The translations under genes and the position numbers were made by a program. Positions 161 to 59,099 of a stretch of 64,000 bases of DNA are shown piece by piece; the first letter of the stretch is position 1; each line of letters opens with the position of its first letter. Origin of the DNA: Paraspadella gotoi (Eukaryota; Animalia; Chaetognatha); NCBI GenBank assembly GCA_051294375.1, contig CM119265.1:2827292-2891291 (forward strand), given 5' to 3'. Below the pieces are notes generated by a model, which was not told where the DNA came from, did no database searches, and saw only the letters and a list, made by a program, of their open reading frames with translations.

Positions 161-1420
161 AATCCTCATCGAATTCGCCGAAGCCAATCTTCCTCACAGT
201 CAACTCTCAACTCGCGCGACTCAAACTTTGAGAAGATTTCAAATCGAAGAAACGAGGCGAAGGAAAAACACTCAAAGTATGTTCATTCATTTTATTACTT
301 AAATTATTTAATTTTTTTGTTCATTTATTAATAGTACTTGAAAAATTAAATTTAGTACGTCCAGTTTGTTCATGTAACAAATATCTGTTTCTCTGTTTAA
401 TTGCTGAGACAATTTTAAGTCTTTGTTCTTTTTTTGTCAAGTCTCCATTTGATACTCATTTGCGTAAAATTATTCGTAGAAGCTGTGATATAAAATTACT
501 CTTAAAATTGCATACTTACGACAATTCTTAAGAATTTTCGAAACCAATGAAATAAATCATTAACCTTCATTTCAATAAATAGCGAATAATCGAACTAATT
601 ACAATATTCATTTCTGAGATAGTAAACTTAATTAGTTTTTTAGTAAAGTTATTAACGTGAACAACACCGATATGTTTCCTTTTCGCCGTAGATTCATAAT
701 TCTCCCGCCGCAACCTTTTCTTCATACTTACCTGGCTCAGGGGATTCCTTGATCAACAAGGAGGTTCCCCCGGGGTGAGGCCTTTCCATTGCACTTCGGT
801 TGGGCTGACCCTTGCGATTTCCCCAAATGTGGGAAACTCGGGAGCATAATTTGTGATAGTGGGGTCTGCGTTCGCGCTAACCCCATAACTAATACTGTTA
901 TAGAAAAACTCTTAGCAATGTTCTGCCATTCGCTAAATTACTTGTTTCACTATTTTTAGTTATGGAGTATTTAATTTGGATTTTTCTCGCCATGTGTAAA
1001 TGAGGAATCCAACTCATTGATTTTACTTTATTAATTAATTACTATATTTGTTTATTTGTTTAATCTTGGAAACGCTTGAAATGGATACAACCATTATAGA
1101 ATTATTCATTCATTTAATAAATAAGCAATCTTTTCCCAGACTTAGAACAGGCTGCGTTGAGTTAAGGCTTTACTATCCTAAATCCATCCCTATAAATATG
1201 TTGATCTGATGTTTAACCTAATATTAACCCGTTTAACCTCATCATTACCCAGGTTCGTTAACGGACTCGGGAATCCCCAGCCCCAACAGCGACTGTCCCA
1301 TCACCCCGACGAGTTTCTCGTCCTCTCTTGATGTCACCGATGATTTCTCTCCCGCTACGACTCCCCTCACCCCGACTGGTAAGGTTAATGGGTTAATACA
1401 ATATGGTCAATACCAAATTC

Positions 1421-36665: not shown

Positions 36666-36696
<31 letters not shown>

Positions 36697-39600
36697 TTCT
36701 TCTACCTCTTTTTCCAAATATTTATTAATTTACTTTGAATATATCATTCTTGCTACTGACGATGACATATCTCATAATATACAATATATTATATTATAAC
36801 GCCAATTTTGAGAAAAAAAATTATTTATACATTTTTTTGTCAAAATCGCACAAAGCCTCTCAAGTTAACTTCTTTTGGCCAAGATTTCGCTGTTAAACAA
36901 ACATTAAGCTACAATAAAGTCGCCGACAATACTCTCGTCAATTTTATTCCTTTCCTTACCGGAAAATATCTCAAAGATTTGCCCTGGGATGAAACCAAAT
37001 CGAAACTACCCTGGGACAACTATCCCTTCATTTGGAAAAACTTTTCGGACAGAGGGTAAATACTAAATTGTGGCTGTATATTCACACCGCCTCACGTCCA
37101 GCTCATGGGTAAGAAGGTCTCAAGTTCAAACCCACGTATTCACACCGCCTCACGTCCAGCAGCGTTCAGCCAATCACATTGGCTCTCAGGGGGAACGCAC
37201 CATCCAGGGCGTTGCGTACCATCAACAGTCCTAACGATTTCCTTCTGGGTTGGCAAAGCGAGACCGTCCTAGGGGAACCGCGCCACTGACAGGAGGCGTT
37301 ACTGAGTGTCGGAAGCCCCCAAAGCCATCAGTAAGATGCCCCTTTCCAATGGGCATCACGGGCAACCCGGCTGTTACCATAAGAGCCCCTTTTCTCCTTT
37401 AATTCAGAATTAAAATTATTTTTAAGTTTAGTGATTTGGCTTAGAGATTAGGGTTAAGGATTTGGGTCAAGGGTTAGGGTTTAAAGTTAACAGATAAGGT
37501 TAGAGATCAGCGTTACGACTTAGGGATTCAAATGTATTAGTTTAAGGTATTAGGTCAAGGTCACAAGGTTAGGGGGCTGAGGGATTTTAAAAAATCAGGC
37601 TTAGATAATGAAAATAAAATTAAGTTGAGGCATTAAGAACAGAAATAGGGCACTTTTGGAAAATAGTGGCCAAAAATTCTCATTAACTTTTTTGTATTAT
37701 TTTTGTATTAAGTCAGCACTTGATAATAATTCCATTAGGTACTGGACTCTGTATGGTGAAGATTATTTCAGTATCAGTACCTTCAACTACATAAAGGAGG
37801 GTTTTCACCGGCAGCCCACAGACACTATTTTCGACCATTTTTACTGGCCTATGATAAATATCATAAATTAGAGTAAGTTCAACTCTGAGAATTATCTTAA
37901 TTTAATTCTCCGAAATTCATTTTCAAAATTGATTTTCTCCTTTGAATTGTAGTGGCGTATCGGCACCAAATGTTTTGGAAATCAAACTCAGGTTTGTTTT
38001 ATTTTTTTGATTTTTAGTGATGTAATATCACTACCCGTTGGATACCACTATTCCTTCCGTCAGCGTCCTAATAGCGCGCTTGTTTAACGCTTCATCTCCG
38101 AACCCAATGGGCATGGGTTCTAGCCCTGGTTGAACAGTCCTTGCAAAAAGAGTGACGGGCCGGTTAAACCACCGGTAGCAAACCTACATGGCAACTGACG
38201 GAAAAAGCTACCAGACCCACTCGGCACACTAAGTATGAGGCTATCCACAGTCACAGACAGGCATGGCGACCCTCTCTCCTCTTGGTCACTAAAATAATTG
38301 GTTTGAATTACTTCATAACATTCTTGTATACCTATTACCTAATAATTCATGTATAATAACTGGCAAGTTAAAGGGGTAGCAAGGATTTTCTGAAGAGCAC
38401 TTAATTATATTTAAGTAAGTGATGTAAAAGTATGTGACTAAAAAGTATTACCTTTAAATGATGCAGTACGTATTACCAGACTCGTGAGCATTTCCAAATC
38501 TAAATTGGACCGACCGATCAAAAGTAGACTAATCGGGTTCGTCCTCCAGTGAGTACTCAACAATTTTCCCTCGAAGGGCGATTGGCTCTACGATTGGTTC
38601 TTCAACGTCCTTCGATCTCGCGACGTCAGCGATCGAACTTTTGCTTTACTTTGGTCCAACTCTTGGTCGCATGAGGAGCTCCACGCGACCAGAGCAGCGG
38701 ACGAGCCCACGCTCCGACTGTTTAAGAGATTGAACGAGGGTGAGGGGGAATATTAGGAGCAATTGGGAGGATCTATTAATAAATAAATACTTAAAATAAT
38801 GAGTGAATGAATGAATTTATACATGATTGAATTAATGAATAAAAGAAAAAGGAATGAATGAATGAATTTTTAATTAAATAAATTATTCATTGATTAATCA
38901 ATAAATATATAGATGAATAAATGAATTATTTAATGAATGATTCATTGAATATATATTGAATATAAAAGTGAATTACAAAATGAATGAACTGAATAATTGA
39001 AGAAAATTTTTTTGACTCAATCAGTGAAATAATTAATTATGATGAAGATGATGATTGAGTGAAATACTGTATAACTAAACGAATCAACGAATCTCAATCT
39101 AATCAATAAAATCAATCAATCAATCAAACCAATCAAACCAATCAATCAATCAAATCTCCAAGCCAATCTTCTCTCCAACGCCATCGTCTTCTTCTTCTCT
39201 GACCACGGATTCCGATTCGGCGAAATCAGAGAAACTTTTGCCGGAAAATTCGAGGAGCGACTTCCCTTCCTCTACGTCCTTTTGCCGGAGAGGCTGCGGC
39301 GAAGTCGTCCCGAGTTGGTCGCCAATCTAGAGACGAACTCCCGTCGATTGACGACGAATTTCGATCTTTACGAGACGATGGTTCATCTCTTGGATATGGG
39401 AACTGGAAAGAAGAGAGGGTGAGGGATGAAATGGACAAAATTTGATTGATTGATTGGATTGATTGGATTTATTGATTGATTGATTTCTCTCTCCAGGTCA
39501 GAGTCCAATCCTCCTTTAGTCAATGGAACCAAATTTCGTTATTCCCTCTTCGATGAAATTCCAACGACAAGATCTTGTGCCTCAGCGACCATCAAGCGCC

Positions 39601-41436
39601 ATTGGTGCACTTGTCAGACAATGAGGAAGGTCGTTGTGGAGAGCAAGATGGCAATTGACGTCGGCAACTTTATAATTGAGCGGGTGATTTTACTTCGACT
39701 TTACCAAATTTGAAATTGTATTGAAAGTTTTTAAAATGAACATGCAATATAATCATAATTTGTTTTATTTTTAAGCAATACAAAAACGTTTTTAAAAAAA
39801 GAAGCTATGTCCTGCTATATTATTATATTGTGAAAGGGATGGAGGCCTTAAGCCACCATAGCCTGTCCAAAGACTGGAGGCAAAATAACTTATTTTCTGA
39901 ATGAATGGATAATTTTTATATTGATTGTACGAATTTCATGAAGCGTAATTTCTATATTTTTTTTATATTTTAGATAAACGAGGTTTTAAAACATCGACGA
40001 AATATTTGTCAGTTTCTGACTTTGAAGAAAATAAAAAGCGCCTTCATTACAGAATCTCCCGATTATTATCTCAAGGTAAAGTAGAAGTAACTGTTGAAGA
40101 TGGTTTGTATTGATAAAGTTGTAATCCGTATCTGAACGAGTTTTAAGAAAAGAACTGTTGAAAACCGTATCTGATCTAGAAAGAATTAACTAAAATTGAC
40201 CAAAATTGATTACATATATGTATATATATATATATCTTCGATTCTGTCGTTCTGTTCGTCGCCTTGACTTAACTTTGTCTTTCTGCTATATAACAATCTT
40301 CACTCAATTAACCAATTAACCAATTAACCAATTAACCAATTAACCAATAAACCTTTGCAGTGGCGACAAGAGGGGGGGACACCCTCGCCTCAGGCGAGGG
40401 GCCCGGGCCCCAGGGAGGGCCGCTGAGAAGAGAGAAAAAAAGAAAGAAAGAAAAGAAGAAGAAAAAAAAAGGAATTGAGTGATTATGAAAAAAGGTTCAG
40501 TCTGTGCAGATAGTTTAACTGATCAAATTCAACTTAGATCATGCCTGGGCCCCTTTAGACTTTAGGGGTCAAGTTGGTAATGTCCCAACTATTTAATGGG
40601 GGTAATGGCCCTGTGGCCCTGTGGCCCCGTGGCCCTTTGGCCCTTTGGCCCTTTGGCCCTTTGGCCCTTTGGCCCTTTGGACCCGTCCATAGTCCCTAAT
40701 TTTCAAGCCAGAAAGTCAGTAATCGAAAAATAAAAAATAAAACTATGGAGAGCTGGGGGGGACCCGGCCGTGGGACCAGTGGAGGGGCCCGCCATTTTTC
40801 TCGCAGCCCCTGAACCTTTGTCATTCAGTTCAGAGCTCTCTTCAACGACGTCCTCAACCAACAGCTCGAGTTCCAACCTCCCGTCAGATCCGCCAACAAT
40901 TTTGTCGTCGTCGTCGAAGCTTCTCCCGGAGGCGGAGTCTTTGAAGGTGTTGTTGTTGTTGTTGTTGTTATTGTTTCGTTATTTATTTTAATGTTTTTGG
41001 TTTTTTATTCGTTTCATTTTTGACGTTTTTGATTTTCTTGTTCTATTAAAAGTTGTTCTTGTGTTTTTAATGTTGTTTGTTGTCTCTGTGGTTGTTTTTG
41101 TTGTGGTTTTGTTGTTATTGTTTATATTTTGTTGTTGTTTTGGTTGTTTTTGTTGCTGTTGCTTTTGCTGTTGTTGAGGAACTCTTTTCATTTGTCTCGT
41201 CTGTGTAACGATTTGCTCAAATAAAAATGTCCTATCACACTATCACACTGTGTTACTGTGTTTCTTTTTCCTCCTCAGGCACTGTGCGCGTGTGGGAAGC
41301 GAAGGGAAACCATAAAGGGTCGATGTCGTTGGAAGGAGAAATAAGCAGAATCAATTTATATGGACAAACGTCTCATTGCGTCGAGGAGGCGAGACTCAAA
41401 AAATATTGTTATTGCAAAAATGATGCGGGAGATTAA
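35169..41436 (+). CDS. DUF229 family protein (alkaline phosphatase/sulfatase-like fold, N-terminal TM), paralogue 1
   Basis: ~14 exons: MSRLFNK-TM, GCKIPSFDPFD, VFLVGIDSVSKNNFIR|NLPKT, YNKVADNT, TLYGED, FFSDHGFRFGEIRETFAGKFEERLPF, RLTTNFDLYET, SLFDEIPTTRSC..HWCTC, ISRINLYG..HCV..LKKYCYC*. One apparent 1-bp frameshift near 37822. Confidence 0.9.
38016..38290 (+). mobile_element. Repeat family C: hairpin, tRNA-like head and partial twister core (P4 deleted)
   Basis: Homologous to 58574-58871; B-box-like GGTTCTAGCC; AGT-GA-CGG-GCCGGT-TAA-ACC at 38151-38170. Confidence 0.75.
39823..39940 (+). repeat. Family A fragment with degenerate twister core (39835-39877)
   Basis: GA-TGG-AGGCCT-TAA-GCC-AC-CATAG-CCTG-TCCAAAGA-CTGG followed by the family A tail. 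Confidence 0.75.
40358..40812. mobile_element. hAT-type MITE with 8-bp TSD
   Basis: TSD AACCTTTG at 40350-40357 and 40813-40820; termini CAGTGGCG.../...GCCCCTG; internal GGCCCTTT tandem. Confidence 0.8.
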
Positions 41437-41563
41437 ATAAAGAAAATTTGGAGTCTTCGGCATTTTTAATTCATGAGGATAAGCTAAAGATTAAGGTGTT
41501 GTCGGTACATTGAAAAGTTATCAGTGATCACTGATAGGCCATCGATTATTATATTGATACTAC

Positions 41564-41760
41564 GGTGGACTAAAATCCACCAACCGTTCATCAGCGGCAG
41601 GAGGCGAGTCATTCGCTTCCCAACCAAAAGGTCCGGGGTTCTAGCCCGGTGGCTGCCTAACACGCCTGTAACACGATGTTACAGCCTTGTCCAAAGCTCA
41701 GGGACTGCTTAATAAGCAGTGCTTATATTGAACGGTTCTGTCACTAACTCATAACAATTA
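41564..41760 (+). mobile_element. Repeat family B: tRNA-like head with twister 3' half
   Basis: GGTGGACTAAAATCCACC hairpin, TCGCTTCCCAA..GGGGTTCTAGCCCGG, then TAA-CAC-GC-CTGTAACA/TGTTACAG-CCTTG-TCCAAAGC-TCAGG. Confidence 0.75.
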
Positions 41761-44539
41761 TTTCTCGAAAAAACCATAATTACTTTATATATATAGGTAA
41801 GTTAAACTATATCCTACATATACATTCATCCAATAAGCTATCTTACACCTTACTTTAGACAGGCTAGGGAGGGTTAAAATGATAAAATAGCGGGACTCTG
41901 CAAGCTTTCAATCAAGACTCTCTCACATTCTCATTTAAAAATACCAGAGCTATTGTCTTCTCTATCAATGAAATGGTAAAATAGATTTACTAACTGTTTC
42001 AATTGTAAGAAAAGAAATATAAAATAAAGACAAAAAAGAAAACTACCTTTCTTCAGTGGATTAGATACTAGAACTTTTTTCTTAAGAGTGTCGAGAAATT
42101 TCCATGGCAACTGATAGAAAAGTGATATTGAGACACGATAACATGAGTAATTTGGTTTTGAACGAGGACCTGATCGCGCATTAGATACATAAGCGGTGTA
42201 AAAATTTCGAAAGCGACTAGTAGAGACGAGGAGCGACGAGGAGCGAAAACATGCGCAATTTCTGCGGACCAGCTCCGTTAAATAATAAATTTCATGATGA
42301 AACCATGAAAACTACGCCTTTGTTCCCCAAGATTTGGAAAGTTCAGACACTGAACTATCCAGATGTCAAATAATAATGGTCAGTTAACGTTGTCTTCAAG
42401 TGCAAATTAATGCCTCCACTAAAAGTTGATTTTGGACTTTTTAAATTAGCCGATGAAATTTAAATGCTAATGTATACAGCGTTAAAATAATCTATCATGA
42501 CCATAGATTATGGTATTAAAATATTTTTTGTCAAAAATGCTTTCTTCTGAGGGTACTCGCCTAATTAAAAATATTATATTACTATATAGAGCAAAAATAT
42601 TTTTTTTAAATCTTAAAATTTTTTGATGGATTCTGATAGAGCATAAAAAGTTAAACAAGAAATATAATTACAGCTTTTAAAAATTATTACGTTTTCTAAG
42701 TGAAAATATAAAAAAAACTGATAAAATCATCGAAAGATGATGATGATGATGATTTTTTACAGTTTTTTTTTTTTTTGACACACTTATCATAAAAATATTT
42801 AAAAAAGAATCATACTTTGTGTAGACAACTTTTTATGAGTTATCTGAATCTGGTCTTAAAATTTAAAAATTCCAAACAAAATTTTTGGCCTTTCCTATCT
42901 ATAAATAAATATTAAAAAATTAATTACTAGGGTATAGAGCCATATTAGAAATTTTTTGTCCATTGAAAGTATTCTTAAAAATGTCTAAATATTCGTTTGA
43001 GCATGTACTCACTCTAAATTTTTGACTCACCCCATTGAGTGCGGCTACCTCATTATCTCATTAAATTTAATGAGATAATTTTAATAAGCTAAAGAGTTTA
43101 GCCGCTTGGCAAGACACTAAACTAATTATATGTTTTGTGATAAGTTATCTTTTTAGCACCAGCATTATACAAGGGATAGTTAAACTTGATGTAAATTCTT
43201 AAATGTAGTATTATGTTTTACTGGCTTTGTTTCATATCAAATCACCATATCTTATCACCTTTACCGATTTTATTTGTTCCCGCAAAGGAAGATACCAGGG
43301 ACGTTAGAGGTTCAAATACTAATAACACTTTTTAATTTATTTGTTGGGATCAGGTGCAAATATTGTAAAATATAGCAATGAACGGACATTTTCGAGTAGA
43401 GGACCAGTTTTAAAATGCATTAGAAATGAGTTCAACGATTGTCTTAGAGTAGGAAACTTGTAATAGGTTTAAAAATATTACTTATTATTTACAGTAAAAT
43501 ACAAAAAAAAGACAAATCATAGGAAAACCGCTCGCGGAGTAATCGTTTTAAATAGCTTTAAATACTACTAAACTATTTATGGATTTATGTTTTTCCACCG
43601 ATTTTAGATACTAAAATCCATGTACTATCAAAAACCATTCGTAGTTGGCAAGTATTTAAAGCGCTATTTGTGCAACTTTCGTAATGAACCAAAAAAAGCA
43701 GAAAAAAATTTTGATCGCTAGAATTTTTTTTCTTCGCGAAGCGACATATATATCTACCCAAAAGTCTAAACGTTTATTCTCGGTGACTGACGTGGCAAAT
43801 ATGTGACAAATGTAATAAATATTTCATCTTAAATAATTTTGAAATTTCAAATGTCAAATTTCTAATCAATATTTTTACACGATCAATTCTTTGAAGTCCA
43901 ATATTCATGATTACTTATGGGTTTTTTTTTTCTCTCTCTGTGTCTCTCTGTCTGTCTCTGATCTTTTATTCTACCAAATTTACAATTATTTTATAATAAA
44001 AAAAAATTGTCTTGAAAACAATTTAGTTTTTTCTTCACCCCTTCAAAATCGCAGTTAAAAAAAATTTTACTTAGTAAATGATTCTTATCGAAGTGTTAGA
44101 AAAAAAAATAATTTGAAAATCATTTTGGCATTTACTCATTTTGTGGATCCTGAACACATCAAGTGCGTTATAATATCAATGAGAATGGTAGTGATTCCCT
44201 ATGATTCCCTGTATATTCTAAGCTAGTTTTCAAAAACTCAGATAGAGTAAAACCTTTTTAGAACAAATTTGTATTTAATCCATACTAGGTATCTGGGTAT
44301 CCCGTTGTTTATCAAGATTTAAAAAAAAAGTAAATTCATCTTAAACTACCTGGAATATAGCTTGACAAAGTGAGCCTGAAATAGAGAAAAGCCTTATATC
44401 TCTTAAAGAAATGATTTTTGACAACTGATATTGCTTGAGAGGTTTCCGATGATAGTCACTAATTAATTAAAAGCATATATATTTTTGTACGATGAACTAA
44501 CCTTATTCCAATAAAAAAAAATATTTCGATGATAGTGAA

Positions 44540-47500
44540 ATGCAGCAACGACTATTGTGCAAAAACCGCTTCTTCATCTTCTTCGTCGTCGTCGTCGTCG
44601 CTTTCGTCTTTGGAAGTTTTTATTCGGGGTTTTTGCGCTTTGAAAATTTTGGATTCAATTCGTGGGAAGCCTCGTTTCCGATTCATTCCGTCAATTTCTC
44701 TGGTAAACAAAAACAAAAGATCAAATAATTTTATCAACGTGATTATAAAGATTCACAGATATTCATAATTCATGTTTTACAGAGATTCATAAATCCTCAT
44801 TCACAGAGTCTCATGATAACTCAGTCACATTCGGAAACGAGGCGAAGGAAGGATTCGACGTCTTCACACCCGGATGTAAAATTCCCACCGTTGATCCCTT
44901 CGATCCATCGCTCAGTCACATCAAATTGAAGGGTGAGATCAATTACGAATAGAAAACACGTATGAAATTGACCTTGCAGTAAAGACAGGATATATTGGCA
45001 ACTATATTTGGGCACCCTGACCCTTCATTAGTGTGCCCAGTTGGTCTGAAGCTTCGGAACTGGTTGTTTAATCATAACCGTCAGTCAAATGAATACACAG
45101 TTCCGTCCAGGGGCAAAACCCGCGACAAATGGGTACAAGAGATGAAGCGTTAGCTCTATGGAGTTATGACAAGATGAAAATTAACGCGGCAAAACTGTCC
45201 CACGTAAATTCTTATCGTATTTCACAATCTCAACTACTACAGCGCGGCAGAACTGGAGAGTGATGTGAAAATGATAAAATTTTAGAAAATTAAAATTTAG
45301 CATATAAAACATGAAAATAAAAACCAATAAAAATACTTTAGTAAGTTTATTTTTTAATTTTATTCATTAGTGGCACCCAGTGAGCTATATTTATATATAG
45401 TAATAAGTATATTATAAGCTAAAATTTTAAAATGTAAATTTTTAAATTTTAAGATCGGATTTGGATTTCTTGCTAAAAGTTAATACAAGAAATTCTTTTT
45501 TTAATTTTTTCATTAAGTTGGTTAAAAATGTAAAAAAATGTATTTAAGATGCAGATTTTCAATTTTAAGCTTAAAAATATAGTTTTTTATAATTTTAACC
45601 TACCAACTTTTATCAACTTTTATCAACTTTTAACGAGGAAACTGAATCTGTTCTCAGAATTTTAAAAAAAACATTTTAAAGTTTTGACATTATATAAGGT
45701 ATATACAAAATTAGCTGACTGGGCTACTATATTTGTAAAAAATATATATATTTCCAGATTAGTATTCACTAATATGATAGTTTTCAAGATATATTTGCTA
45801 AATTTTGATTCCAAACTTTCACTTCACCCTGCTGGAGAGTTTTATTCTACGAGTTATAATATTTTGATGTTAATTTAAATTTATTAAACTCCAGGGGAAA
45901 AAAAGACAAACGAATGCAGCAAAACTCGACGATTTCTTGTGAAGAATTTAAAAGAAAATTCGATTCGTTTGAACGAAAAGGAAAAAGGAGAAAAACTAAG
46001 AATTAAATCTTGTGAAATCAAAACTGTGAAGCGGCGAAACGATCGGACGGAATGGACGGACGCGCGGACATTTCGTGCGGACGCCTGCGTAAGTCAAGAG
46101 AATTAATTTAATAAACTAAATATGTAAACTTATAATCCACTGGTCAAATCAAATTTTAATATGTATCCGGATTTTATTTTAATAAAATTTTATTTAGAGT
46201 AAATAATTTTTGAAAAACTTAATTGATTTTTCAATTTGTCTTCACCAAAGGTCAACATCTCCGGCGACTTTTCACTGATCATTTGTTTCGACAAGATCGT
46301 CGAGCCCGCTTCCAAGAATTCGTCGTCGCGGCTTTAGATGATAAAACAAAAGACAAAAGAGACCAAAGACTCTGGATTCGACGTTTTGCTCATCGGCGTC
46401 GATTCTGTATCGAGAAATAATTTTGTTAGAAATTTCCCGAAGACTCGAAAATTCCTCTTCGATAATTTGGAACCCGTGGAATATTTTGGGTAATTTAGAC
46501 TTGAAATAAAGGTTCGAACTTCATACCAAATAGTACAAGATAGAGTTCAGGTCTACCTGCTTGCAAATCCTAACGCATTGGAAGCATTCTTTACCATTTT
46601 ATATCGCTTATGGAAATAACGTCAATTGAAATTTAGCTATGGTTAAAATCCGAAATTTGTATCCAGTTACTTTCCATATTTGTACTATTCTATAAATGGT
46701 ATGTATTTACAATTTAGAGTACCTCTTCTTAATTTTCAAGGTACAACAAAGTTGCCGACAATACCCTGGTTAATGTTATTCCATTTCTCACTGGAAAATA
46801 TCTTGAAGACTTGCCCTGGACAGAAAAAATGGCTCATTTGCCTTTTGATATATATCCTTTCATTTGGAAAAATTTTTCAGATAAGGGGTAAGTTAATGCA
46901 GTGTATTCGAAGAATTAGAATTAAAACTTTATGGTTATATTGTTAGAAAATAAGTTACGCATGTATATTTTTTTTTGTATGTAAAAACTGTTTTAATCCA
47001 GATACCGCACTTTCTACGGAGAAGACTCTCACAGCATTAATACCTTCAACTACCAAAAAGCTGGATTTCATTCTCAACCAACTGATTATTACTTCCGTCC
47101 ATTTATATTGGCTTATGAGGAATTAGAAAAGAAAATGGGCCTAAGGTACATAGTTATGTGGTTTTTTCCATAGTTTCCTAAAACTGATATGATTAAGCTT
47201 TTTTTTCCCAACCTTTTTAGAAATAGATATACTTTCTTGTCTTGCCAATACTGAAAAGTTCAGCAATTTTTAGATATATCGAGTTTACAATATACTAAAG
47301 CAGCTTTTGAATATGTATTAATGATATATATTGAGCATCTTCTAATAATATGTATAATAATATTAAAATAATTATATTAATAAAATTTTCAGCCAAGAAT
47401 CTCGAACGAATGCTTTGGATATCAAACTCAGGTAAAAGATCACGTTCTATTATAAAATTAATTTATACACACTGCACAGTAGGGTGGAGTGATGAAAAGA

Positions 47501-49899
47501 TTGAGCGATGTAACATGTTTTTTTGCTGCCTTGGTATATGTAATAAAAAATAATTAATCCTTTTTTTCAAAAAAATTTGGTTTAACCGTATTATGAATGA
47601 ATTTTCTTTATAGTAATTTATTGTAATTTATTGTATTTATTTATTTTTTGTAATATCCTTATAAACATCATATTTTTTAATTTTAAGAACAGTTTCGGAT
47701 TCGCCGCGAAAAAACTTAAATATAAGTTAAATATGTTACATGATATTTTTAGGTTAAAGCTGCGAAAAATGACCAAAACGTTTAATCATATAGTAGTTTT
47801 TACTACAGAGCATGAAAAAGTGGAAAACTTGGCCTTTTTTTTTCCATTTTTGACGCTGACGACATTGAAATTTAATAACATATTATGGTTGACTAAAATC
47901 CACAACGCTTCATCAGCGGCCATTGGTGCCGGAGGCAAGTCATTCGCCTCCCAACCCAAAGGTCCGGGGTTCTAGCCCGGTTGTGGCCTCGCTGTTAAGA
48001 GGGATGGGGCGCTTAACCCGCCTGATCCAAAGCTTTAGGGACTGCTTATATTGAACGTTCTGTCACTAATTCATAACAATAATTATTGTCTCTTCATTGG
48101 TGAGCCGACTTCCAAACATAACAGCAACAACAACACTTTCAGGCGACATGCCTCAACCTGGCGATGCACTTTACGCCAACAACACATCAGTCGACATGAC
48201 TTGGTGACAAACTTTCCACCAACAACAATTAACAGAAGAGACAAAACAGACTTTTCCCAACGGGGGGGGGGATGTATGGTGGACTAAAATCCACCAACCG
48301 TTCATCAGCGGCCATTTGTGCCGGAGGGCAAGTCATTCGCCTCCCAACCCAAAGGTCTGGGGTTCTCGCTGCGGACGGGGCGCTTAACCCGCCTGTAACA
48401 CGGTGTTACAGCCTGATCCGAAGCTCAGGGACTGTTTATATTGAACGGTTCTGCACTAACTCATAACAATAATTACTGTCTCTTCAAGGCTAATAATAGA
48501 TTAATATTTATATATCTCTCAAAATCCGCAGGGCGAATGGCTGTACGACTATTTTCTCGAGTTTCTTCGAACTCACAAAAACGAAAAGAAATTCGCTTTC
48601 GTTGACGAACTCTTGGTCGCACGATAAAGTCTACGACGCCGCTTTGGCCGATGAGCCGACGGAAAAACTCTTTCACAGATTGAAACAGGGTCAGTTGTTG
48701 GAGAAACTGCGAATACTGGTCGCATACTACGTATTTTGAATCGTACAACTTATACATTTTGCAACTCTATCATTTGATAAAATATATTTTTTAAGAAAGT
48801 TTGTCGAATTTTTCTAAGACTTAAATTTTTTGTTAAGAATTACTTTTAATTTTAAAACGGATTTTACCTTAGAACCTACGTGGACTGAATTTAGTCATTG
48901 CTCAGTTTTAAATTCTTTTTTAAATCAGGCGGCTTCTTAGAAAATTCCATTGTGATTTTCTTCTCTGATCACGGCTTCAGATTTGGTCAAATCAGAGAAA
49001 CTTTCGTGGGAAAATTCGAAGAGCGTCTTCCTTTCCTTTTCTTTCTCGCGCCCAAAAGATTCAAGAAAGATCATAGAGGGCGTTACGAGAATTTGAAGAA
49101 AAATGCACGAAGACTGACAACCAATTTTGACATTTATCAAACTCTGGTGGATCTTTTGGATTTAGGGTCTATGAAAGAGACGAGGTACGTAGTATGAATG
49201 GTCAATATATAATTATATATTTTATATATTTTTTGATTTTTTAGAGTATTTTGCCAGCTTTTTTTGTTCATTTTCTTTCATTTTTGTGATATAATAGAAG
49301 ATTCAACTAATCAAAAATTTTTGTATGAAAGAATGATACAACCCTATTTAAATTTTTTTTTCGAAATAATTTACGCTTTTAAAATGAGTCAAAAGTAGTT
49401 TTTGTCAAACATATGAGGTAATATTTTTTTAAAGTATATGTTATAAAATAACGTTAAAGATTTAAAATGCTAAAATTTTTCTTACTTATACTATTATAAA
49501 ATTCTTGTATGATTTTTCGTATAAAGAGGCAAGGAAAACTCTCCTTTTGTCAACGGAATCCAATACCGCTATTCGCTCCTTGATGAAGTTCCTCCAGAAA
49601 GAAATTGTGAATCGGCAACGATCAAACCTCATTGGTGCGTCTGTCAATCTATGAAACGAGTCGATGTTAAAGATAAAGATGTCACTAAAGCTGGACAATT
49701 CATCGTTCAACAGGTTTTGGATATTTTATTTATTGGATAAAGAATAGTTGGTGTGCTAGAAAAACTAAGATGTGATTTTATTCATCTGTGATGATATTTT
49801 TTTCCGCTCAATAGAGAAGTGCAGAAATAATTGTAAAGTTTTAAAACTGACCACTTATTCACTTTTGTTGCAACTTTTTCGCCTCTTTAGTTTAATTAA

Positions 49900-49939
<40 letters not shown>

Positions 49940-50547
49940 GATAAACAAATATCTCTCTGATAAAAAAGACGTTTGTGAGCACTACAGTATGAAAAATATT
50001 AAGAGCGCATTTGTGACGGAATCTTCAGAATACTATCTCAAGGTTGAAATGGATATATTTTTCATAATCTTTTAAACATCGAGTTATATATACTATACTA
50101 TAATTATACTATCTCAAAGTTGAAATGGATATATTTTCATAATATTTTAAACACCGAGTTATATAATTATATAGCGTCTTTTTTCTACAGTTCAAGTCGG
50201 TTCTCAATGATATTCTAAATCGAAAATTGTACTTTCAACCTAAAGTGACAGCCGGTAAAAATTATGTCATCATAGTTGAAGTTGGTCCGGCAGAGGCGTT
50301 TTTGAGGGTAATGGTATTTGATGGATTTAAGAGCATTATTCCATTTCGCCGCAAAAAGTCATTAAATATTCTTTTCAGGCACAGTGCGGGTTTGGGGAAA
50401 GAACAACAACAACAAGAAGATGGTGCCGATGAAATAGAAGGAGAAGTGAGCAGAATCAATTTGTACGGTAACGATTCTCATTGCGTCAAAGAAGCTAATT
50501 TGAAAAAGTTTTGTTATTGTAAAATTCAATCGTTAAATAGAGTTTAA
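44540..50547 (+). CDS. DUF229 family protein, paralogue 2
   Basis: ~13 exons (44540-44702, 44807-44932, 45895-46088, 46251-46489, 46741-46887, 47002-47145, 47393-47431, 48532-48689, 48929-49183, 49529-49713, 49941-50042, 50191-50307, 50379-50547) with the same motifs (GVDSVSRNNFVRNFPKT, FSDHGFRFG, VSRINLYG..LKKFCYC). A few 1-bp indels in the last exons. Confidence 0.88.
47887..48486 (+). mobile_element. Two head-to-tail family B elements (47887-48096, 48278-48486), each with a tRNA-like head and twister core
   Basis: Cores at 48000-48039 (GA-TGG..TCCAAAGC) and 48371-48429 (GA-CGG..TCCGAAGC); shared tail ..TGTCACTAAYTCATAACAATAATTAYTGTCTCTTCA. A tail-only reverse copy lies at 57847-57887. Confidence 0.8.
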
Positions 50548-50620
50548 AAAGAATGTAATCGTTATAACTTATTACTTTTTGAGAAAGAAAGAAAGAGAGA
50601 GACAGGTGGAAATAAGGAGA

Positions 50621-50659
<39 letters not shown>

Positions 50660-51446
50660 TAAATTGCTTCCCTAAACCATAAACAAAAAACAAAACCATA
50701 AACAAAATCCTTTACCTCTCGGTTTTTCCTTTGCCCTTTTTAGTTTTCTTTGATTTCACAACAGCAATTGATTAATAAATATTCGGGATCAAACGCCTTT
50801 TTTTCAATTTATAAAAAAAAATAGCCATTTGCGATCTGTGATTGGTCAATATCGGTCACGTGACCTTAAAATCTTCGTATTTTAAAGATTTTTTTAGAGT
50901 AAAAAGTTATTTAATAGTTGTCTAATGTATATTTTGCATAAAAAAATTTTTAATTTTAATTTTTTAACAATATTAAAGAGTAAAACCGAAAGTAAGTGTG
51001 TCAGAAACAAGCCAAAGTGGTCAAGCAGGCAAAGAATACTTAAATTTTTTCTCTTAATCTTTTGCTCTTTTCTCTTTCTCTTTTACTCTACATATCTCTC
51101 TCTCTTCTGTCTCTCGTAATCTCATTCCCTTGTATTTTCTTCTACTACAATTTTGGCTTATTTTTACATTCGCCAACCGTTTTTGAATGCTTTTACTAAC
51201 AAAAGAGCGATTTACATTTTTGTCCTAAATTCATGAATCTTCATTCAAAATTGTTTTCAAAACTTTTATATATATACTCTTACAAATAATTACAAATAAT
51301 TTTTTTTTCACCAATATCATTAAAATATCTTCGAAAACATAAATAAATAGAAAGTCTCATCGGATATTTACGGTAAGATATGACTTTTAGGAAACTTTCA
51401 CTTATATTGTTCATGCTTGCTTGATAGATTGACACCACTTTTCCAG

Positions 51447-53765
51447 ATGGCATCCCGCAACTGCGTCGGTATGTGGCAATTGTGGCATCATCGTCTTTCG
51501 TAAATTCTTCCTCGTTTTCTCTATCGTTTCTTTATATTTCACTTTTCTCACATTTCGCAATTCAAAGTTTGTGGGTAAACAAACAAAGGAGCATCTGCCT
51601 AGTTATTTTAAACTTGAAATATTGTACTTCACCAATTAGATTTGCAAGCAACAATAATTTCATCATACACTTCAGGGACCGAAAATAGAGAGAGATACAA
51701 CATCTTCACTCCAGGAAGTAAAATTCCATAATTTGATCCGTTCGACTCTTCACTGAAACATAATCAACTCGTAGGTAACTAAAGACAATAATACTAATAT
51801 ATAATACTAATTAATAGTGTATAGTTTGAAAGAGACTCGATCAATAGAGTCCTGCATTCCTTGGTTTAAAGTTGTGTTCACATGAGATTGATGGAGAAGT
51901 CCCTCTCAGTTATCAAAAAAAATTGCTGACACAAAAAATATCATAATAGCTCATACTGATATAAAATAAGCACCAAACGCGTTAATTATTTAGTATACTC
52001 TTAACCCATGGCATATTTAAATTGTCTACGTATCCCCAGCAGGAACTCAAAAGTTTGAAAACTCCTGAGCTATTTTTAGCTCATTGGTAATATTGGTATT
52101 ATAAGTCACCCACAAAAATTTGGGTTTACAGAAATTGAAAATTTTTGGGTAATATTGATTGATGCTTCATTCTTTCAAATTTTAACAATACTCAAAGCAC
52201 TGATGAAGGCTTGAATGAAAGCCGAAACTTGTCTGTACATTAAAATAAAATCGTTGCTGTAACAAGACTTTGTCTTCATTTTCAATTACCTAAAACACAA
52301 CGAAAGAAAGTTTAATCACAACAATACTCTTCATAACAAAGATCACAGGCCTATCGACTGCAGTCAAATGGCTCGATTTATCTCGACGAATTCTAAAGAC
52401 AAAAACGAAATTCAATTGAACAAAACTAACATTTTGAAGCTTAAATCGAAAATAGATTTTTGCGAATTGAAATACGTGAAGAACTTTGAGAGTAAACTCT
52501 ATTTTTTTTCAGCTTTGTTGATGATGCGAGGGTTGTTGTTGTTGTTGGTATACTCCAAACAAATTTCACGACCTCATTTTATTTAAACTACAGGGCGATT
52601 GGTTGTATGAATACTTTCTCCATTTTATAAATTATCACAAAAATGAGAAAAAGTTTTCGTTGGTCTGGACGAATTCCTGGACACATCGGCACATTCGAAG
52701 AGCTGGCGCCGCCGACGAGCCAACGGTGAAACTTTTACTCATAGATGGTAACTTTTGAAAACATTCGTAGATAGCGAACTGAATTTGGCATCATTCATAG
52801 TCATAAGTACCCAATTACTGATTTAGAAGAAAGTCGGTTGCTTAAGGAAACAAAAGAAAATTGTGTTTATCAAAAAGTATTCATCAAAATATCAAACGTA
52901 GTCCCACATACAAGTCATTTTGATAAAAGCACATTTAAAAATATTGTTCCTTAATGTTATAAAAATACTAAAAACAGATTCTCTCTGTATCCCCAACCGA
53001 CACTGACAGGCGGATTTCTTGAATATTCCTTCGTGATATTCTTTTCGGATCACGGATTTCGTTACGAAGAAATCCGTCAGACTTTGTCTTTGGCGGGAAA
53101 ATACGAGGAACTGATGCCTTTTCTGAATTTCCTTCCGCCTAAAAGGTTCGAGATCGAATACAAATACCGCAATTTGGTGAGAAAAGGTTGACGACCAATT
53201 TCGACATCTATCAAACTTTATTGGATCTCGCGGCTTTGGGATCGTCAACAGTTTGAAACGGGTAGGAATTTTGATGAAGATACAACATCTATTTCCAGAA
53301 GACAACACTAAAGTCAACTATGGTTCCGGGTGTTGCACCTGGTTATTGTTTCTATGCCCCATACTTTTTTTTAAACTACTATCCGTATCTTTTGTGTCCC
53401 TTCCGCAGCTATGGAACGGGTACTGAACCCGGTACCTAACGATTCTAAGCTGATGGCTTTAGTCAATAAGTCAGCATCAGTTTTTCTTAATTTTGAGTCA
53501 AAATTAAGAAAAACTAAGAAAACGTAAGAATTTTTAAAAGTTATAATTATATTTTTTGGTTTAACTTTTTATCAGAATCCATGGAAATATTACAATTTTA
53601 AACTTTTAAAAAAATTTTTAGTACCTAAAGACAAAAGTTTTGAAGCCCCGCCCGTTTTGATTTGAATTTTTAGTAAGTATCTAATTAAAGCATTTAATAT
53701 TCCGAAATTCAAGGCAGTCTTCAAATCTTCCGTTCGCGGACGGCGTCAGGTTTCGTTATTCTCGG
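51447..53765 (+). pseudogene. Decayed third DUF229 paralogue
   Basis: Exon remnants: 51677-51773 (YNIFTPGSKIP*..FDPFD, disrupted), 52594-52748 (GDWLYEYF..WTNSWTH..AADEPT), 53010-53261 (FFSDHGFRY..LTTNFDIYQTL with deletion/frameshift), 53714-53765; central and last exons not found. Confidence 0.75.
52197..52236 (+). ncRNA. Minimal type-I hammerhead ribozyme-like motif (Penelope-like remnant)
   Basis: GCA-CTGATGA-A-GGC-ttgaatgaaa-GCC-GAAAC-TT-GTC-TGT, with AATAAA ~10 nt downstream. Confidence 0.6.
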
Positions 53766-54347
53766 TATAAATGCTGAAGTGTTACTGTTTCTGGCTAATT
53801 TTCTTCTAGAAATTTGTTATCGTATGACGTATAGGCTTTGAAATTTTAGGTTAACTCGATGCGAGTCGATCACTTCGTGTTTTTTTTCCAAAAAACTGAC
53901 TAAAAAAAAACTCAGTTATTTATCGACGTTTGACTAGATAAAAATTCATTAAAATCACTTCAGCTAAAATTTTTATTAATCAAGCACAAACGAAATTAGT
54001 TTCAATGAAAAATATAAATCGTTCTTTTGTAAATGTATTACAAAAATGGGTACAAAAAGCATGTTTAGTTGTTTACGCCATTAAATTGATTCAAGAGTCA
54101 AAAAAAGCGTGCGATACGTGACACGGGTTCACTGATGAAGTCCACCATACAATATACACGTCGCAATACTATTGCAAAAGGCCAAGATGAACCACGCTGA
54201 GAGATTAGGGATTTATTGGCGACGTTTGGATTATTTTTATTAAATTAAGATTTGACCTGAAAAAGAAAAATAAAACGCAATGGTAACGAAAGCAACTTTA
54301 AGACTTCAGCGGAAACCAGAAACTGGATAAGAAAAAACAAGGGTTAC

Positions 54348-54547
54348 TTTTACTTTCACCGACCGGGGTTAGGTAGGGGGTTAGGGTTAAGGGTGGTTTA
54401 AGAGTGGTTTAGGGTTAAGGTTGGTTAGGGTTAAGAGGGTTTAGGGTTAGGATAATTAGGTAATATTTTTTTAAACTTTGTTTTAAAAATAAGTATTTTT
54501 AAATGATTTTTTAAAACCTTCCAAAACCGCGGTCGGCGAAAGTAAAA
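54348..54547. mobile_element. MITE with TIR TTTTACTTTCRCCGACCG and internal TTAGGG-like repeats (copies at ~59674-59851; diverged at ~61530-61752)
   Basis: 18-bp terminal inverted repeats visible; the second copy is in the opposite orientation. Confidence 0.7.
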
Positions 54548-54863
54548 TTTAGCCAAAAGCAATTTAAACAATGAAATTCGGTGACATTTTCAAAGAAAAT
54601 CAAGGGGAATTAAAACTAATACGTTATTACGGGAAATCTAATTAGTTCACATAAATCTTGTTTACCGCGCTGTTTACAATCTGCATCAAACTAACTTTTA
54701 CCGATGAATATTATGGATCTGGGAAATCTTAAAAAAAATCCCAACTCGAGTTTTTTTAATTAAACAATGAAGTGCGATGGATATTTATGAATATTATCAA
54801 GTTTGGTGAAATCTTTCCGAAACAAATCTGTCCGGAAGTCAAGACGTCATCGTCTTTCTCTTC

Positions 54864-55292
54864 TCATCGATATGCACGACGAGGCGATCTCGAGCGGTAG
54901 CGTTCGTAGGATCGCGACCGGGAGCGCGACCTTCTCCTTGGCGGCGGCGAGTAGCGTCGATAGTCGTCACGACCGTCCCGTCCGTCCCGGCCGTCCCGTC
55001 CATCGCGCCCGTTGTCCCTCGGTCGACCACGCCCACCACGTCCGCCGCCGTGCGAGATTTCGACGCGAACTCTGCTGGAACCGATGCGCGTCCCGTCTAA
55101 TTGTCGACAGGCGTCGCCGGCGTCGCGAGGATCTTCGAACTCGACGAAGGCGAAGCCGGGTGGATTCTTCGCCACCCAAACTGACTTTAAGGCGCCGACT
55201 TTGGAGAAGGGCTCGCGAATTTCGCCCTCTGTGGCCCGGGGATCTAGGTCACCCACGTAGACCTTGGCTTCGTTGAAGGGGCGACGGGACAT
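54864..55292 (-). CDS. SR splicing factor, SRSF3/SRSF7 (Rbp1/9G8)-like, single coding exon
   Basis: [46 protein letters not shown] followed by RD/RS repeats; no zinc knuckle; ATATAAA on the minus strand at ~55363-55369. Confidence 0.92.
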
Positions 55293-56351
55293 CGCCAGGG
55301 TTTTGGAGGGGCTGCGCCGGTGGAGGAAGATGAAGACTAAGTCCGAAGGAAATTGGGCTTCGTTTATATCTTTCCTGGAGAGAAAATTTAATAGAGCAAC
55401 ACTTTAATAACAAGATACATTATTCAAAAATTGAGAGGTATTGCGAAAAAAGTAAATATCAATATGGTATTACGGTCTTGATTAAAATAAAGAATTATTC
55501 AGGGTAAACGCTAGCGACCAGCTTCCCTCTTTTAAAATTCGTCTGCTTCATCGATTTTCTTTTTTTCAAAATTCAATTTCCGTTTCTTCGTCTCTTTTGT
55601 TTTCTCCTAACGGAATTCTATAGAATCAAATTGAACAGAAAAAAAAACAAAGAAGCAACAGGTTAATAACTTTCTCAAGCCTTGAGTCAAGGACGAGGTT
55701 ATAAAGAAATTTTAAGGCGATTATATTGTAGTTATGTAATAACTCCGCTGACCAGTTTTTAAACTTTTTTTTTTCATATAGCGTATCTCACTTTGAAATT
55801 TCCCTAAGATTTCGTTTTAAATTACTTAAAATTCTTTTTCGTCGAGTAATTCAGTTGGACAACAAGAGTTCTTTGTCTTCAACTTGAAGTTCAAGCAAGC
55901 AAATACAAGCAATGACGATTATTTAAATGCTTCCCTCCTCCAAAGTTTAAAAAAAAAGTTCTTTATAAAATTTAAATTAAAAAAAACAACAACTAATAAG
56001 GCCTGTCCTTGTGCCTCGAAACGTGTGGCTTAATTTTTTTTTTTTTTTTTTTTCACGGATTTCAAACAAAAATGTCATTGTGATCATCTTGGTCTTCATG
56101 AAAGTCTATCAGCGAAAATCAATGCCAACAACGCACTGCCTTAAAAATAATACTGCATTATTTTAGTTCATAGTTGATACAATTGGTGTAATTTATGTTT
56201 CGTACTTGTTGTGGACTCGTAATCTAACCAAAATCAATGCGGCTCAGATCATCGAAATTCCTATTTCTCGTTTACTTTTAACTACAATTTTTTTTTAAAT
56301 CTTTCTTCAAAATTTCAGGCTCGCTTCTCCCCCCCCCCCCATCAACTGATA

Positions 56352-58323
56352 ATGTCTTCCCCTCCCGCCCGACTCTTTCCCGGAGTCGGCCTCCTTCTCG
56401 CATTCGTGGACGTTACCTGCATCACTTACGGCGAACTCTTGGTCGTAGTGACGCCGCGGTTGTCGGCGCTCACTTTCGCCTGGATCGACGCCGCCGCTTT
56501 CGCCGTCTTCCTCGTTCCAGTCTTCGCATTCGGACGCCGGAATCCGTTGGCGCCAAAGCGGCGCGATTTGGCGCTTTTATTCTTCAACGGTGAGTTTAGA
56601 GTAATGAAAATTCTATATTTTGATCGAATTACATACATATTTATTAAATGAATGGATAGTATTTTGATGCTGGGCGGAGTACAATTTAGTATTCCCCGAT
56701 CTAATACTTAAGATAGTGGTCTTTTCATACAATTAAAATATTCTTTCAAACATTATACTACTCCCTGATAGGGAGGCCAAGAACCTGCTATGTACCTCTG
56801 TCGTTATCTTGTAAGAGTGATGGAGGCCTTAAACCACCAAAGCCTGTCCAAAGTCAGGGGCAAGATAGCTTATTTATCAAATGAATGGATAATTTTTATA
56901 TTGTTTGTACCAATTTCATACAATTCTCACAGTTAGAGGTAGCGAGAGAAAGAGAGAGAGGGAGAGAGAAAGAGAGAAAGCCGAGAGGAAACAAAGGGAG
57001 AAGGGGTCGTCTAGAGGTTGTCTTCTCCTAACCAGCGTGGGTAATATTCGTCCCCACGACCCACGACCCACTAATCTAAACAAACGTCACTTCAAACTCC
57101 AGGTTCCAGCGAAGTATTTTGTCACGTGTTCGCGATTGCGTCTGTGCAATTAGCGCCTCTCGGTGACGTCGTGGCATTGTGGAGCGCGGCCATCGTGATG
57201 GTGCCCTTGGTCGAGTGCCTCGTGGATCTGCGGGGCCAATGCGAGGATCCTCGGGACCAACGCTTGAATAGACGTTGCCAATGCGACGACGCCCTTCGTC
57301 TTGCCTTCGTCGTTTTAGCCGTCGTCGGCGTCGTCGTCGTTTCGTCGTCGTTTCGTCTTCGGAGACGCCAAGACGATCGACCTCGGGCGACGCCTGGTGG
57401 GTTACGCCTACGCCATCGGCAACGCCATCGCCGCCACGCTCAGCTATGTCATGGTGGCCCAGTTGAGTCACGTGCAATTGGGCAGTCGTGGATGTTTACT
57501 TCGTTCCCGCCGCGGTCTTGGTGAGAAATTTGGTTCACTTTGTAAATTGTAAAGTTTAAATGTTTTATATTTTTTTATATATCAAAGCCAATTTAGCAGC
57601 GGTACCCAGCTGAAGACTCTTTGCCCATCCATTGGCTAATAGTCTAATCTCTATAATTGCCTCTCTCTCACTCTTTCTCATTAATTCTTTCTCACTGTGA
57701 CTCTCTCTTTTCCTCAGTTATTGTTAAAAACGCTCATTTACACCCCGAGGTCGTGGTCCTTATAATATTCTCCTTTCAAAAACAGAAAATTTCCTGTCTG
57801 TCATGAAATATTTTATTAACTGGCATTGCGGTTAATAATATCGGTTTGAAGAGACAGTAATTATTATTATGTGTTAGTGACAGAACCTTTGTTTGTCGGT
57901 TAAATGGTAAATACGTCGTCCTAATCTAATTCATCATAATAAGTTTATAACCCACTCCTGCCTCTTTTGACCTACTTCTTCCGCCTCTCCCCCGCCGCAT
58001 CCGCCGCTGCAGCGCCGCTTCCCCGCGATTACTTAGCAGCCGCCGTCTCCGGTCTCCTCGACGTCATCGGATGCTCCTTCGGCGTTCTCTCCCAACAGAT
58101 CGTCAGCGCCTCCACCGTGACGCTCATCGGGTCTTTGGAGATCCCCTTGGGCTACTTGCTGGACTTTGTCTTCACTGGAGAGACGCCTTCGTGGAGCACG
58201 TTGGGCGGAGCAGGGCTCATCGCTGTCTCTGTTGTCGGGTCGTCGATAGTTGAAATCGTTAAAGAGAAGGAGGAAGAGGATCATTTAGAATTAGAAAAAA
58301 AGAAATTGTTGAATCAAATCTAA
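56352..58323 (+). CDS. EamA/DMT transporter, SLC35G-like
   Basis: Hydrophobic exons 56352-56589, 57103-57520 (ASVQLAPLGDVVAL) and ~57960/58013-58323 (SASTVTLIGSLEIPLGYLLDFVFTGETPSWSTLGGAGLI); apparent 1-bp insertions in exon 2. Confidence 0.75.
56638..56922 (+). repeat. Family A dispersed copy containing an intact putative twister (56803-56869)
   Basis: 43-nt core identical to 10891-10933; P5 extends to 10 bp (56803-56812/56860-56869); other parts of the monomer are deleted or diverged. Confidence 0.8.
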
Positions 58324-58573
58324 ATAGTGTTGTGACTCCTAAATTCGCCTCCCGTATAGCTTGGTGAAACTCAGCTCGTCCCATTGGCTTGGACAGCTGA
58401 CTACTCGTTCACCAACCGTGAGTTCCGGGTTCCATCCCCTCACAGTCACGCTGGTTAAGTGTGATCGGTGTTGGTGTTGGCAAAATACGCAAGTAGTACA
58501 AATTTATTGAATCTATTTGATTTAGATACTGAATCAAAATATCTTGTTTTCTTCAGAAAAACGTTCAGACTGG

Positions 58574-58871
58574 AGTGATGTAATATCACTACCCGTTGGA
58601 TACGACTGTTCCTGCCATCAGCGCCGTAGTCACGCACTGGGATAACGCTTCATCTCTGAACCCACTGGTCACGGGTTCTAGCCTTGGTTGGAACAGTCCT
58701 TGCAAAAAAAAAAGTGAGGGGCGGGTTAAACCACCAGTAGCAAGCCTACCGCGGAATCCAAAGTTCCAGAAAGCAAAGCAACTGTCGGAAAAATCTCCCA
58801 GACCCACTGAGCGCACTAAGATTGGCTGTTATCCACACTCGCAGAGAGGGATGGCGACCCTCTCGGTCACT
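58574..58871 (+). mobile_element. Repeat family C: hairpin, tRNA-like head and twister-like core (58694-58784); diverged reverse piece at ~45010-45160
   Basis: AGTGATGTAATATCACT hairpin; GGGTTCTAGCC; AGT-GA-GGG-GCGGGT-TAA-ACC-AC-[GTAG/CTAC P3]-GGAA-TCCAAAGT-TCC. Confidence 0.72.
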
Positions 58872-59099
58872 TTACTGATTTTTATGAAATCAATGCTAGA
58901 TAATAGACATTGTATTATTTCTTTCGTTTCGTTGCGTTTTAAAATTTAGTGAAATCAATGTTTTAAAATTTAGGGTTATGCTACTTAATGTGTGAATTAT
59001 TTGACAATGAAAACAGTTTCTCGTGCAAATTATGTAATATGTTTAACGGATGTATTCAGTCCGATATAGAGTAAAATCGATAAACGCTGTAGCCGAATG

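Follow-up and report, generated by a model that had tools for sequence, protein, structure and literature searches.

Three short, non-coding repeat families, here called A, B and C, lie in a 64,000-nucleotide (nt) stretch of the genome of the chaetognath Paraspadella gotoi (assembly GCA_051294375.1, contig CM119265.1, positions 2,827,292 to 2,891,291; hereafter, the window). Judged by its letters and pairings, what the three families carry is a compact core of the type-P5 twister ribozyme. This core is an ordinary-looking twister in a new setting, and it is a new structural variant, whose main feature, a palindromic P1, is absent from the original prediction made on this DNA. These findings have led to a model that we give an even chance of being right: A, B and C would likely be retroelements of a non-autonomous kind, for which a Penelope-type reverse transcriptase (RT) probably does the copying, and the predicted self-cleavage of their RNA at U/AA would take place mainly between two copies that exchange strands at the P1 palindrome.

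The type-P5 permutation of the twister is reportedly due to Roth et al. 2014. In twisters, catalytic roles fall to the G in GA and to the first of the two A residues in UAA. The twister signature letters (GA, UAA and the U...AA loop) are present in families A, B and C in the P5-permuted strand order, and both pseudoknots, T1 of 3 bp and T2 of 2 bp, were found. T1 is formed by TGG at 56821 and CCA at 56848 in family A; in family B it is TGG at 48005 with CCA at 48027 in one copy and CGG at 48376 with CCG at 48418 in another. Family B differs from A and C in T2, which is GC/GC rather than AC/GT, and in the first P2 pair, which is C-G rather than A-T. In all three families, P2 has two Watson-Crick pairs and, in addition, either a C.A or a bulged A, with a strand of 3 nt, and a P4 helix is present in the cores whose sequence differs between families yet pairs. 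The Rfam model for the type-P5 twister (RF02684) has the same strand order, the same GA, UAA and U...AA loop, the same 3-bp and 2-bp pseudoknots, and P3, P4 and P5. However, its P1 carries a 14-nt loop, whereas P1 here is a loopless 6-nt palindrome, and its P2 strand has 4 nt rather than 3. Further differences from the model are the T1 found here, TGG/CCA or CGG/CCG, and a T2 that can be AC/GT.

With the Rfam model, three family A cores of identical sequence scored 25.8 bits (E 0.32), short of the gathering score of 37.6. A descriptor scan of the window gave five distinct matches with a perfect 3-bp T1, namely four family A copies and one AT-rich chance match at 43291, whereas 30 local dinucleotide shuffles gave 0.43 on average and never more than 3. 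At E <=1, 16 window matches were obtained with a covariance model trained on five window cores and two outside cores, whose training copies match by construction: six in A, six in B (two of them placed there by position only), two in C, and two weak ones without a family. The intact cores in the window number three, all in family A (56819, 11249 and 10930) and mutually identical; every B and C copy is damaged.

In every family, the spacer from T1' to UAA is exactly six self-complementary bases. The P1 hexamer is AGGCCT in A, GGCGCT in B (with an outer G.U), GCCGGT in C (in the copy at 38159 and in the read majority described below), and CAATTG in a core from a metagenome contig, L002. Fully self-complementary hexamers make up 2.3% of all hexamers, and none of six distinct chance pattern matches with a 6-nt linker carries one. 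At the innermost position of P1, family A has G-C, families B and C have C-G, and L002 and a phage twister, L024, have A-U; this pair is Watson-Crick in five of five lineages, with three pair types, though it is unable to close in cis. Because this pair covaries yet cannot form within one molecule, it points to strand-swapped dimers. In a forced homodimer ensemble, a 6-bp intermolecular P1 has a probability of 0.99-1.0 in A and of 0.74 in L002, and P4 and P5 form as well. Within one molecule, P1 has a probability of at most 0.02 and is not closed as a hairpin, and the monomer minimum free energy (MFE) structure misfolds. There is a precedent in the palindrome-driven dimeric hammerheads of Penelope-like elements, described in PMC6765202.

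In an alignment of seven distinct cores, five from the window and two from outside, 89.5% of the cells pair (95% in T1 and 93% in T2), and both sides change in 10 of 14 pairs. The covariation score is 0.643, versus 0.224 in column shuffles (none of 500 reaches it) and at most 0.143 when the structure is slid; these are values from a tiny sample and not an R-scape-grade test, with the structure derived from the same seven sequences and the pattern used to find the two outside rows already fixing the invariant letters. Given a self-derived structure, three related families and two pattern-selected rows, the covariation supports the fold without proving selection. At the level of the sequences compared, conservation of structure over sequence between the family masters is supported.

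The original prediction had described three repeat families with compensatory changes in both pseudoknots. Its coordinates and letters are all present in the sequence, and those of T1, T2 and the first P2 pair bear out the changes between families. It had gone on to propose that structure is under selection and that the families form a diversified, ribozyme-dependent superfamily. The former is supported as far as conservation of structure between the family masters goes; the latter is not established, most genomic copies being decayed and the architectures being different, A being a tandem non-coding unit and B and C having a tRNA-like head. What A, B and C have in common is the ribozyme module; A and B also share a short motif just downstream of the core.

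Further evidence comes from read contigs, which stem from four public runs representing no more than three samples and were aligned to 56600-58950 at 80% likeness. Majority letters, taken from 40 of 166 difference rows, are majorities per position and not phased molecules. In family C, they differ from the copy around 58718 as follows (summed depth in run X4): C at 58718 (772/1146), C at 58723 (2086/2172), G at 58736 (4324/4968), C at 58753 (5560/5736), G at 58755 (5311/5672), G at 58760 (3625/4761) and G at 58768 (2451/3269). The direction is the same in the other three runs, so that all four agree. The majority restores T1 (CGG/CCG), P1, a 6-bp P3 and a 5-bp P4. The T1 mismatch previously reported for the 58718 copy is indeed there, and so are the bulged GGA/TCC P4 and the GTAG/CTAC P3 that had been taken for the stems of family C; since the majority letters restore the broken pairs, however, the bulged P4 is the decay of one copy rather than a family structure. 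Three changes in this copy are CpG-to-CpA, and the observed-over-expected CpG ratio of the window is 1.12.

For family B, the majority was read for the loop and P4' only. The majority loop, taken from the loose-end consensus at 57887, is CCG, and consequently the TGG/CCA at 48005/48027 is the minority form. The difference between TGG/CCA and CGG/CCG within family B amounts to two CpG-type transitions and could be decay; the TGG/CCA form may represent either a compensatory subfamily or double CpG decay. Summed depth in X4, relative to the single-copy flank, reaches about 12,000-fold over the A core and 45,000-fold over the A 3' end, against 3,400-fold at the B 3' end and 50-95-fold at the C core; as summed depth gives no copy number, these values are read only as A and B being very abundant, C being modest, and A being 3'-biased. 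The repeats are also covered in run X8, which may be RNA and in which one contig joins two exons; contig depth being no measure of expression, this coverage is counted neither for nor against it.

The family A array consists of units of 319 nt between predicted cut sites, with 37% GC and a core in each full unit. As in a retrozyme, the unit is non-coding, lies within 150-450 bp and under 45% GC, is arranged in tandem and has one ribozyme; this combination was not seen for B or C. There are many family A 3' fragments in the window, and 56919/56920 is where many read contigs stop, their flanks being heterogeneous and AT-rich (agreement about 0.4). Family A contigs show head-to-tail joints and one inverted joint, and their depth is biased to the 3' over the 5' end. 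Several contigs also join the A 3' end (56919-56920) tail-to-tail with the B 3' end (57845-57847), an arrangement found once in the window (41553-42015), which may reflect a shared target preference. The young A tandem and a decayed A copy flank a 35-bp inverted repeat with a purine-rich spacer (11454-11557).

Families B and C have a fixed 5' end with a hairpin, a B-box-like T-arm (in four of five heads), the core and a fixed 3' end. Neither forms clean tandems in this window, and neither an A-rich or simple-repeat tail nor a target-site duplication (TSD) was seen by eye at five B and C copies. Twisters cut between U and A in the UAA loop and have a conserved catalytic G, according to PMC8501958. 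From the predicted cut to the 3' end, there are 90 nt in A, 102 in B and 144 in C. Genomic copies thus run through the predicted cut site, which fits a circular, multimeric or uncut template.

Pattern scans outside the window gave one further palindromic core. L002 is a non-coding metagenome contig of 1097 nt with no open reading frame (ORF) above 129 amino acids and with a 123-nt terminal repeat, and hence a circle of 974 nt. Its core (385-449, minus strand) has a P4 and a P5 of its own, and its P2 has the 3-nt layout seen in A, B and C; its Twister-P5 score of 24.2 is below the Rfam cut-off, and its fold has a z of about -1.4. No second ribozyme was found in it by simple motifs or Rfam. On its sequence, L002 is a candidate viroid-like or retrozyme circle. 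It came from four metagenome and five genome pattern matches, representing six distinct sequences, of which it alone has P2, P4 and P5; another of the six is a tRNA. The strict pattern gave no match in viral contigs, and nine loci from viral scans with TGG/CCA and CGG/CCG were all chance matches. A GGG/CCC scan with a 6-nt linker gave 25 loci. Two wider scans (59 loci) gave no further palindromic P1 and one possible case of a 5-nt linker, L101.

The phage contigs L024 (284-352) and L042 contain a compact type-P5 twister with a 3-nt P2, a 5-bp P5 and a 6-nt P1 linker, for which there is no Rfam match at E 1. L022 and L034/L040 had been considered as non-palindromic P5 counter-examples and were set aside, Rfam showing type-P1 twisters there; only L024/L042 stands. 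The phage contig sequence of L034 (279-378) and L040 has two back-to-back type-P1 twisters of 41.6 and 37.4 bits, both below the gathering score.

In the model that we favor, neighbouring cores in a read-through transcript of a family A tandem would pair P1 with P1 (6 bp), and each active site would combine one core's 5' half with its neighbour's 3' half. The 319-nt monomers freed by cutting could be circularised by a host ligase, and the circles would then serve as RT templates. In B and C, the same module would lie behind a tRNA-like head, probably transcribed by RNA polymerase III. If cutting requires a partner, full-length transcripts that are on their own would stay uncut and, consequently, could retrotranspose whole. 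Among the features that would fit a Penelope element or a retrozyme are the tandem of 319 nt, the partial-tandem start of the copy at 56640, the fixed 3' ends, the 5'-truncated copies, the head-to-tail and inverted joints, and the 3'-biased depth. A broader proposal, which is somewhat doubtful, is that a dimer-dependent twister subtype exists in which P1 is a loopless palindrome, cores swap halves, and only tandem or crowded transcripts cut. Such a subtype would have replaced the dimeric hammerhead in Penelope-dependent retrozymes and their tRNA-headed hitch-hikers, and would occur also in viroid-like circles. The dimeric minimal hammerheads of Penelope-like elements are said to have been described by Lunse et al. 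2017.

However, it should be noted that a number of results weigh against this model. The dimer MFE structure, obtained by a method without pseudoknots, gives no P2 in the twister register, and for dimer gain the natural hexamer ranks 309 of 4096 in A and 1577 of 4096 in L002, which is a weak energy control. In the phage P5 twister L024/L042, the 6-nt P1 has a G.A mismatch in the middle and is only partly palindromic, and no dimer P1 is predicted; L101 is a possible P5 twister whose linker may be 5 nt long and non-palindromic. Families A, B and C are probably related and are therefore not fully independent. The tRNA-likeness of the B and C heads is weak: ARAGORN recognizes it only at a lowered threshold, and neither an Rfam tRNA match nor a well-placed A box was found there. 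The monomer circle of family A is not unusually stable versus shuffles (z -0.63). No RT or endonuclease family was found among the 123 window ORFs of at least 65 amino acids, nor an autonomous partner. Finally, when six loop 8-mers were looked up in the published Naiad/Chlamys sequences (PMC8557442 supplement), in which line breaks can hide motifs, there was no twister context at 30 of the 32 places viewed.

Some of these points would be expected if the cores are instead active monomeric mini-twisters, with a P1 of one or two pairs closed by a tight loop and a palindrome that is incidental or only speeds the cutting of tandems. This reading, which we consider unlikely, draws on reports that P1 is dispensable. 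In PMC11662667, P1 length and imperfections had no effect in about 1,950 tested twisters, drawn from pools that it describes as type-P1 and sequence relatives, and PMC8501958 also treats P1 as dispensable; a monomer may therefore cut anyway, which counts against the favored model too. The broken middle pair in the 6-nt linker of L024, the possible 5-nt linker of L101, and the unremarkable energy control for the L002 hexamer are in keeping with such monomers. The innermost pair is not: it is Watson-Crick in all five lineages, in three types, and impossible in cis. Nor are the low cis probability of P1 and the misfolded monomer. It is quite improbable that the families are ordinary SINE-like (short interspersed nuclear element-like) or LINE-derived (long interspersed nuclear element-derived) repeats, mobilised by a non-Penelope LINE of the RTE, CR1 or L2 type, with a twister inherited from the LINE end. 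B and C do have SINE-like fixed 5' ends and the B-box-like T-arm, and twisters occur at the 5' end of the RTE element Perere-3 (PMC8501958) and of RTE elements generally (PMC7761336). Known LINE twisters are, however, of type P1 and lie at the 5' boundary, where target DNA forms P1, whereas the core here is of type P5 and internal, 90-144 nt from a fixed 3' end. Furthermore, neither poly(A) nor a TSD was seen at nine copies whose flanks were read by eye, and the tandem and partial-tandem layout of family A also argues against a LINE origin.

It is very improbable that the cores are dead remnants of a single ancestral twister, with covariation arising from shared descent and CpG decay. The damage in most window copies, the Rfam score below the gathering cut-off, the two CpG-type transitions that make up the family B T1 change, and the CpG-to-CpA changes in the 58718 copy would all be explained. 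Decay of this sort is at odds with the compensatory transversions in P1 (G-C to C-G), with T2 being A-U versus G-C, and with different P4 helices that all pair; the intact family C majority, the three intact A cores, identical to one another, and the recurrence of this architecture in the unrelated circular contig L002 likewise argue against it.

Table 1. Copies of families A, B and C and their core features in the window; cuts, cores and helices are predictions
Feature	Position	Strand	Description
Family A copy	56640..56920	+	Starts with a short piece of its own 3' part (partial tandem); internal deletions; fixed 3' end
Intact type-P5 core, A	56804..56868	+	P2' 56817-18, GA 56819-20, T1' 56821-23, P1 56824-29, TAA 56830-32, P2 56833-35, T2 56836-37, P3 56838-42, P4 56843-46/56855-58, T1 56848-50, T2' 56853-54; P5 arms
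Predicted cut in this A core	56830/56831	+	
Palindromic P1, A	56824..56829	+	AGGCCT; predicted intermolecular 6-bp helix
Head-to-tail array, A	10631..11422	-	Period 319, 2.5 copies; two intact cores, 11208-11258 and 10889-10939
5'-truncated A copy	8140..8283	-	Single-base insertions in P1, P3 and P4, of homopolymer type; may be assembly error
Older 5'-truncated A copy	39806..39942	+	P1 palindrome kept; P2 and T2 broken
Decayed A copy	41820..42015	-	Lacks 5' half of core; tail-to-tail with B copy at 41553
Family B copy	47884..48096	+	5' hairpin, tRNA-like head, B-box-like T-arm 47968, T1 TGG/CCA, P1 GGCGCT 48008-13; P3 deleted
Family B copy	48275..48487	+	T1 CGG/CCG, P1 GGCGCT 48379-84, 8-bp P3, 5-bp P4; P5 5' arm deleted, P2' damaged
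Family B copy	41553..41765	+	B-box-like T-arm 41637; GA, T1' and P1 deleted
Old B-type copy	32419..32523	-	Decayed core; P1 GGCGCT and B 3' end kept; lacks tRNA-like head
3'-terminal B fragment	57846..57890	-	45 bp; 5'-truncated copy
Family C copy	38016..38290	+	5' hairpin, tRNA-like head (B-box-like 38116), T1' CGG, P1 GCCGGT 38159-64; P4 and loop deleted
Family C copy	58574..58871	+	Full-length core 58716-58769, point-mutated; majority letters of other copies restore all stems
Weaker covariance-model matches	25101-25158, 18105-18167		Within duplicated segments

The rest of the window holds an intact U1 small nuclear RNA gene (724-886, 156 bits), a RasGEF/RA gene with introns and exons, genes for an EamA transporter, for Tctex-1 and for an SRSF3/RBP1-like protein, and several DUF229 genes, of which at least three, whole or in pieces and with introns, form a cluster (36266-39710, 46647-50544 and 52525-53317). 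The SRSF3/RBP1-like gene is of metazoan type; the named relatives of its protein come from animals, and none of them is close. A fourth very abundant short repeat (58337-58465) has a summed depth of about 3,500-fold, a B-box-like motif and stable hairpins (z -3.1), and this copy contains no twister. Large inverted and direct segmental duplicates of 88-96% identity, with N gaps, occupy 14340-36277; together with the homopolymer-type indels in repeats, they suggest a noisy long-read assembly with uncollapsed segments. An 18-bp satellite of about 117 copies (61908-64000) runs past the window end.

With a very abundant set of twister-based retrozymes and SINEs, the twister would gain a second biological role; scoring below the Rfam cut-off, such a set would also account for its being missed by standard scans. 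If the model is correct, two unrelated ribozyme classes have converged on the same counting device, one that cuts multimers and spares monomers, and the motif would be a natural RNA switch that senses concentration or tandem arrangement. The question can be reduced to a 65-nt RNA: does its cleavage need two molecules?

In a literature search that covered few subscription papers, no twister retrozyme, twister SINE or dimeric natural twister was found, and the word "twister" is absent from the accessible part of bioRxiv 10.64898/2026.07.22.740005. In the literature found, retrozymes and Penelope terminal repeats carry hammerheads, the twisters of retroelements are of type P1 and sit at the 5' end of RTE elements, and hammerheads are the only ribozymes for which cleavage with a partner through a palindromic stem is described. 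Several published Penelope-like sequences in the PMC8557442 supplement have GC-rich stems around GGGCTAA, which by eye resemble ribozymes of the hepatitis delta virus type.

Family A resembles the metazoan retrozymes without long terminal repeats, as presented in PMC7229834 and bioRxiv 10.64898/2026.07.22.740005, in that its 319-bp unit of 37% GC is likewise non-coding, forms tandems and dispersed monomers, and has one ribozyme per unit. However, the ribozyme of those retrozymes is a type-I hammerhead, whereas family A carries a twister, and its predicted circle is no stabler than shuffles; no hammerhead appears among Rfam matches in the window to E 10. Like B and C, the schistosome Sm-alpha and Sj-alpha SINE-like repeats, as outlined in PMC6765202, place a putative promoter-like head before a ribozyme in a short repeat; theirs is a hammerhead, whereas B and C have a twister, no clear A box, and no clean tandems in the window. 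The T-variant twisters of Perere-3 (PMC8501958) are likewise twisters with a weak P1 inside a retroelement, but they are of type P1 and adjoin TSDs at the 5' end of autonomous LINEs, rather than being of type P5 and internal to non-coding elements. The dimeric minimal hammerheads of Penelope-like elements (PMC6765202) also have a short-palindrome stem next to the active site, within elements arranged in tandems. They belong to another ribozyme class, and cleavage as a dimer, which is proven there, is predicted here.

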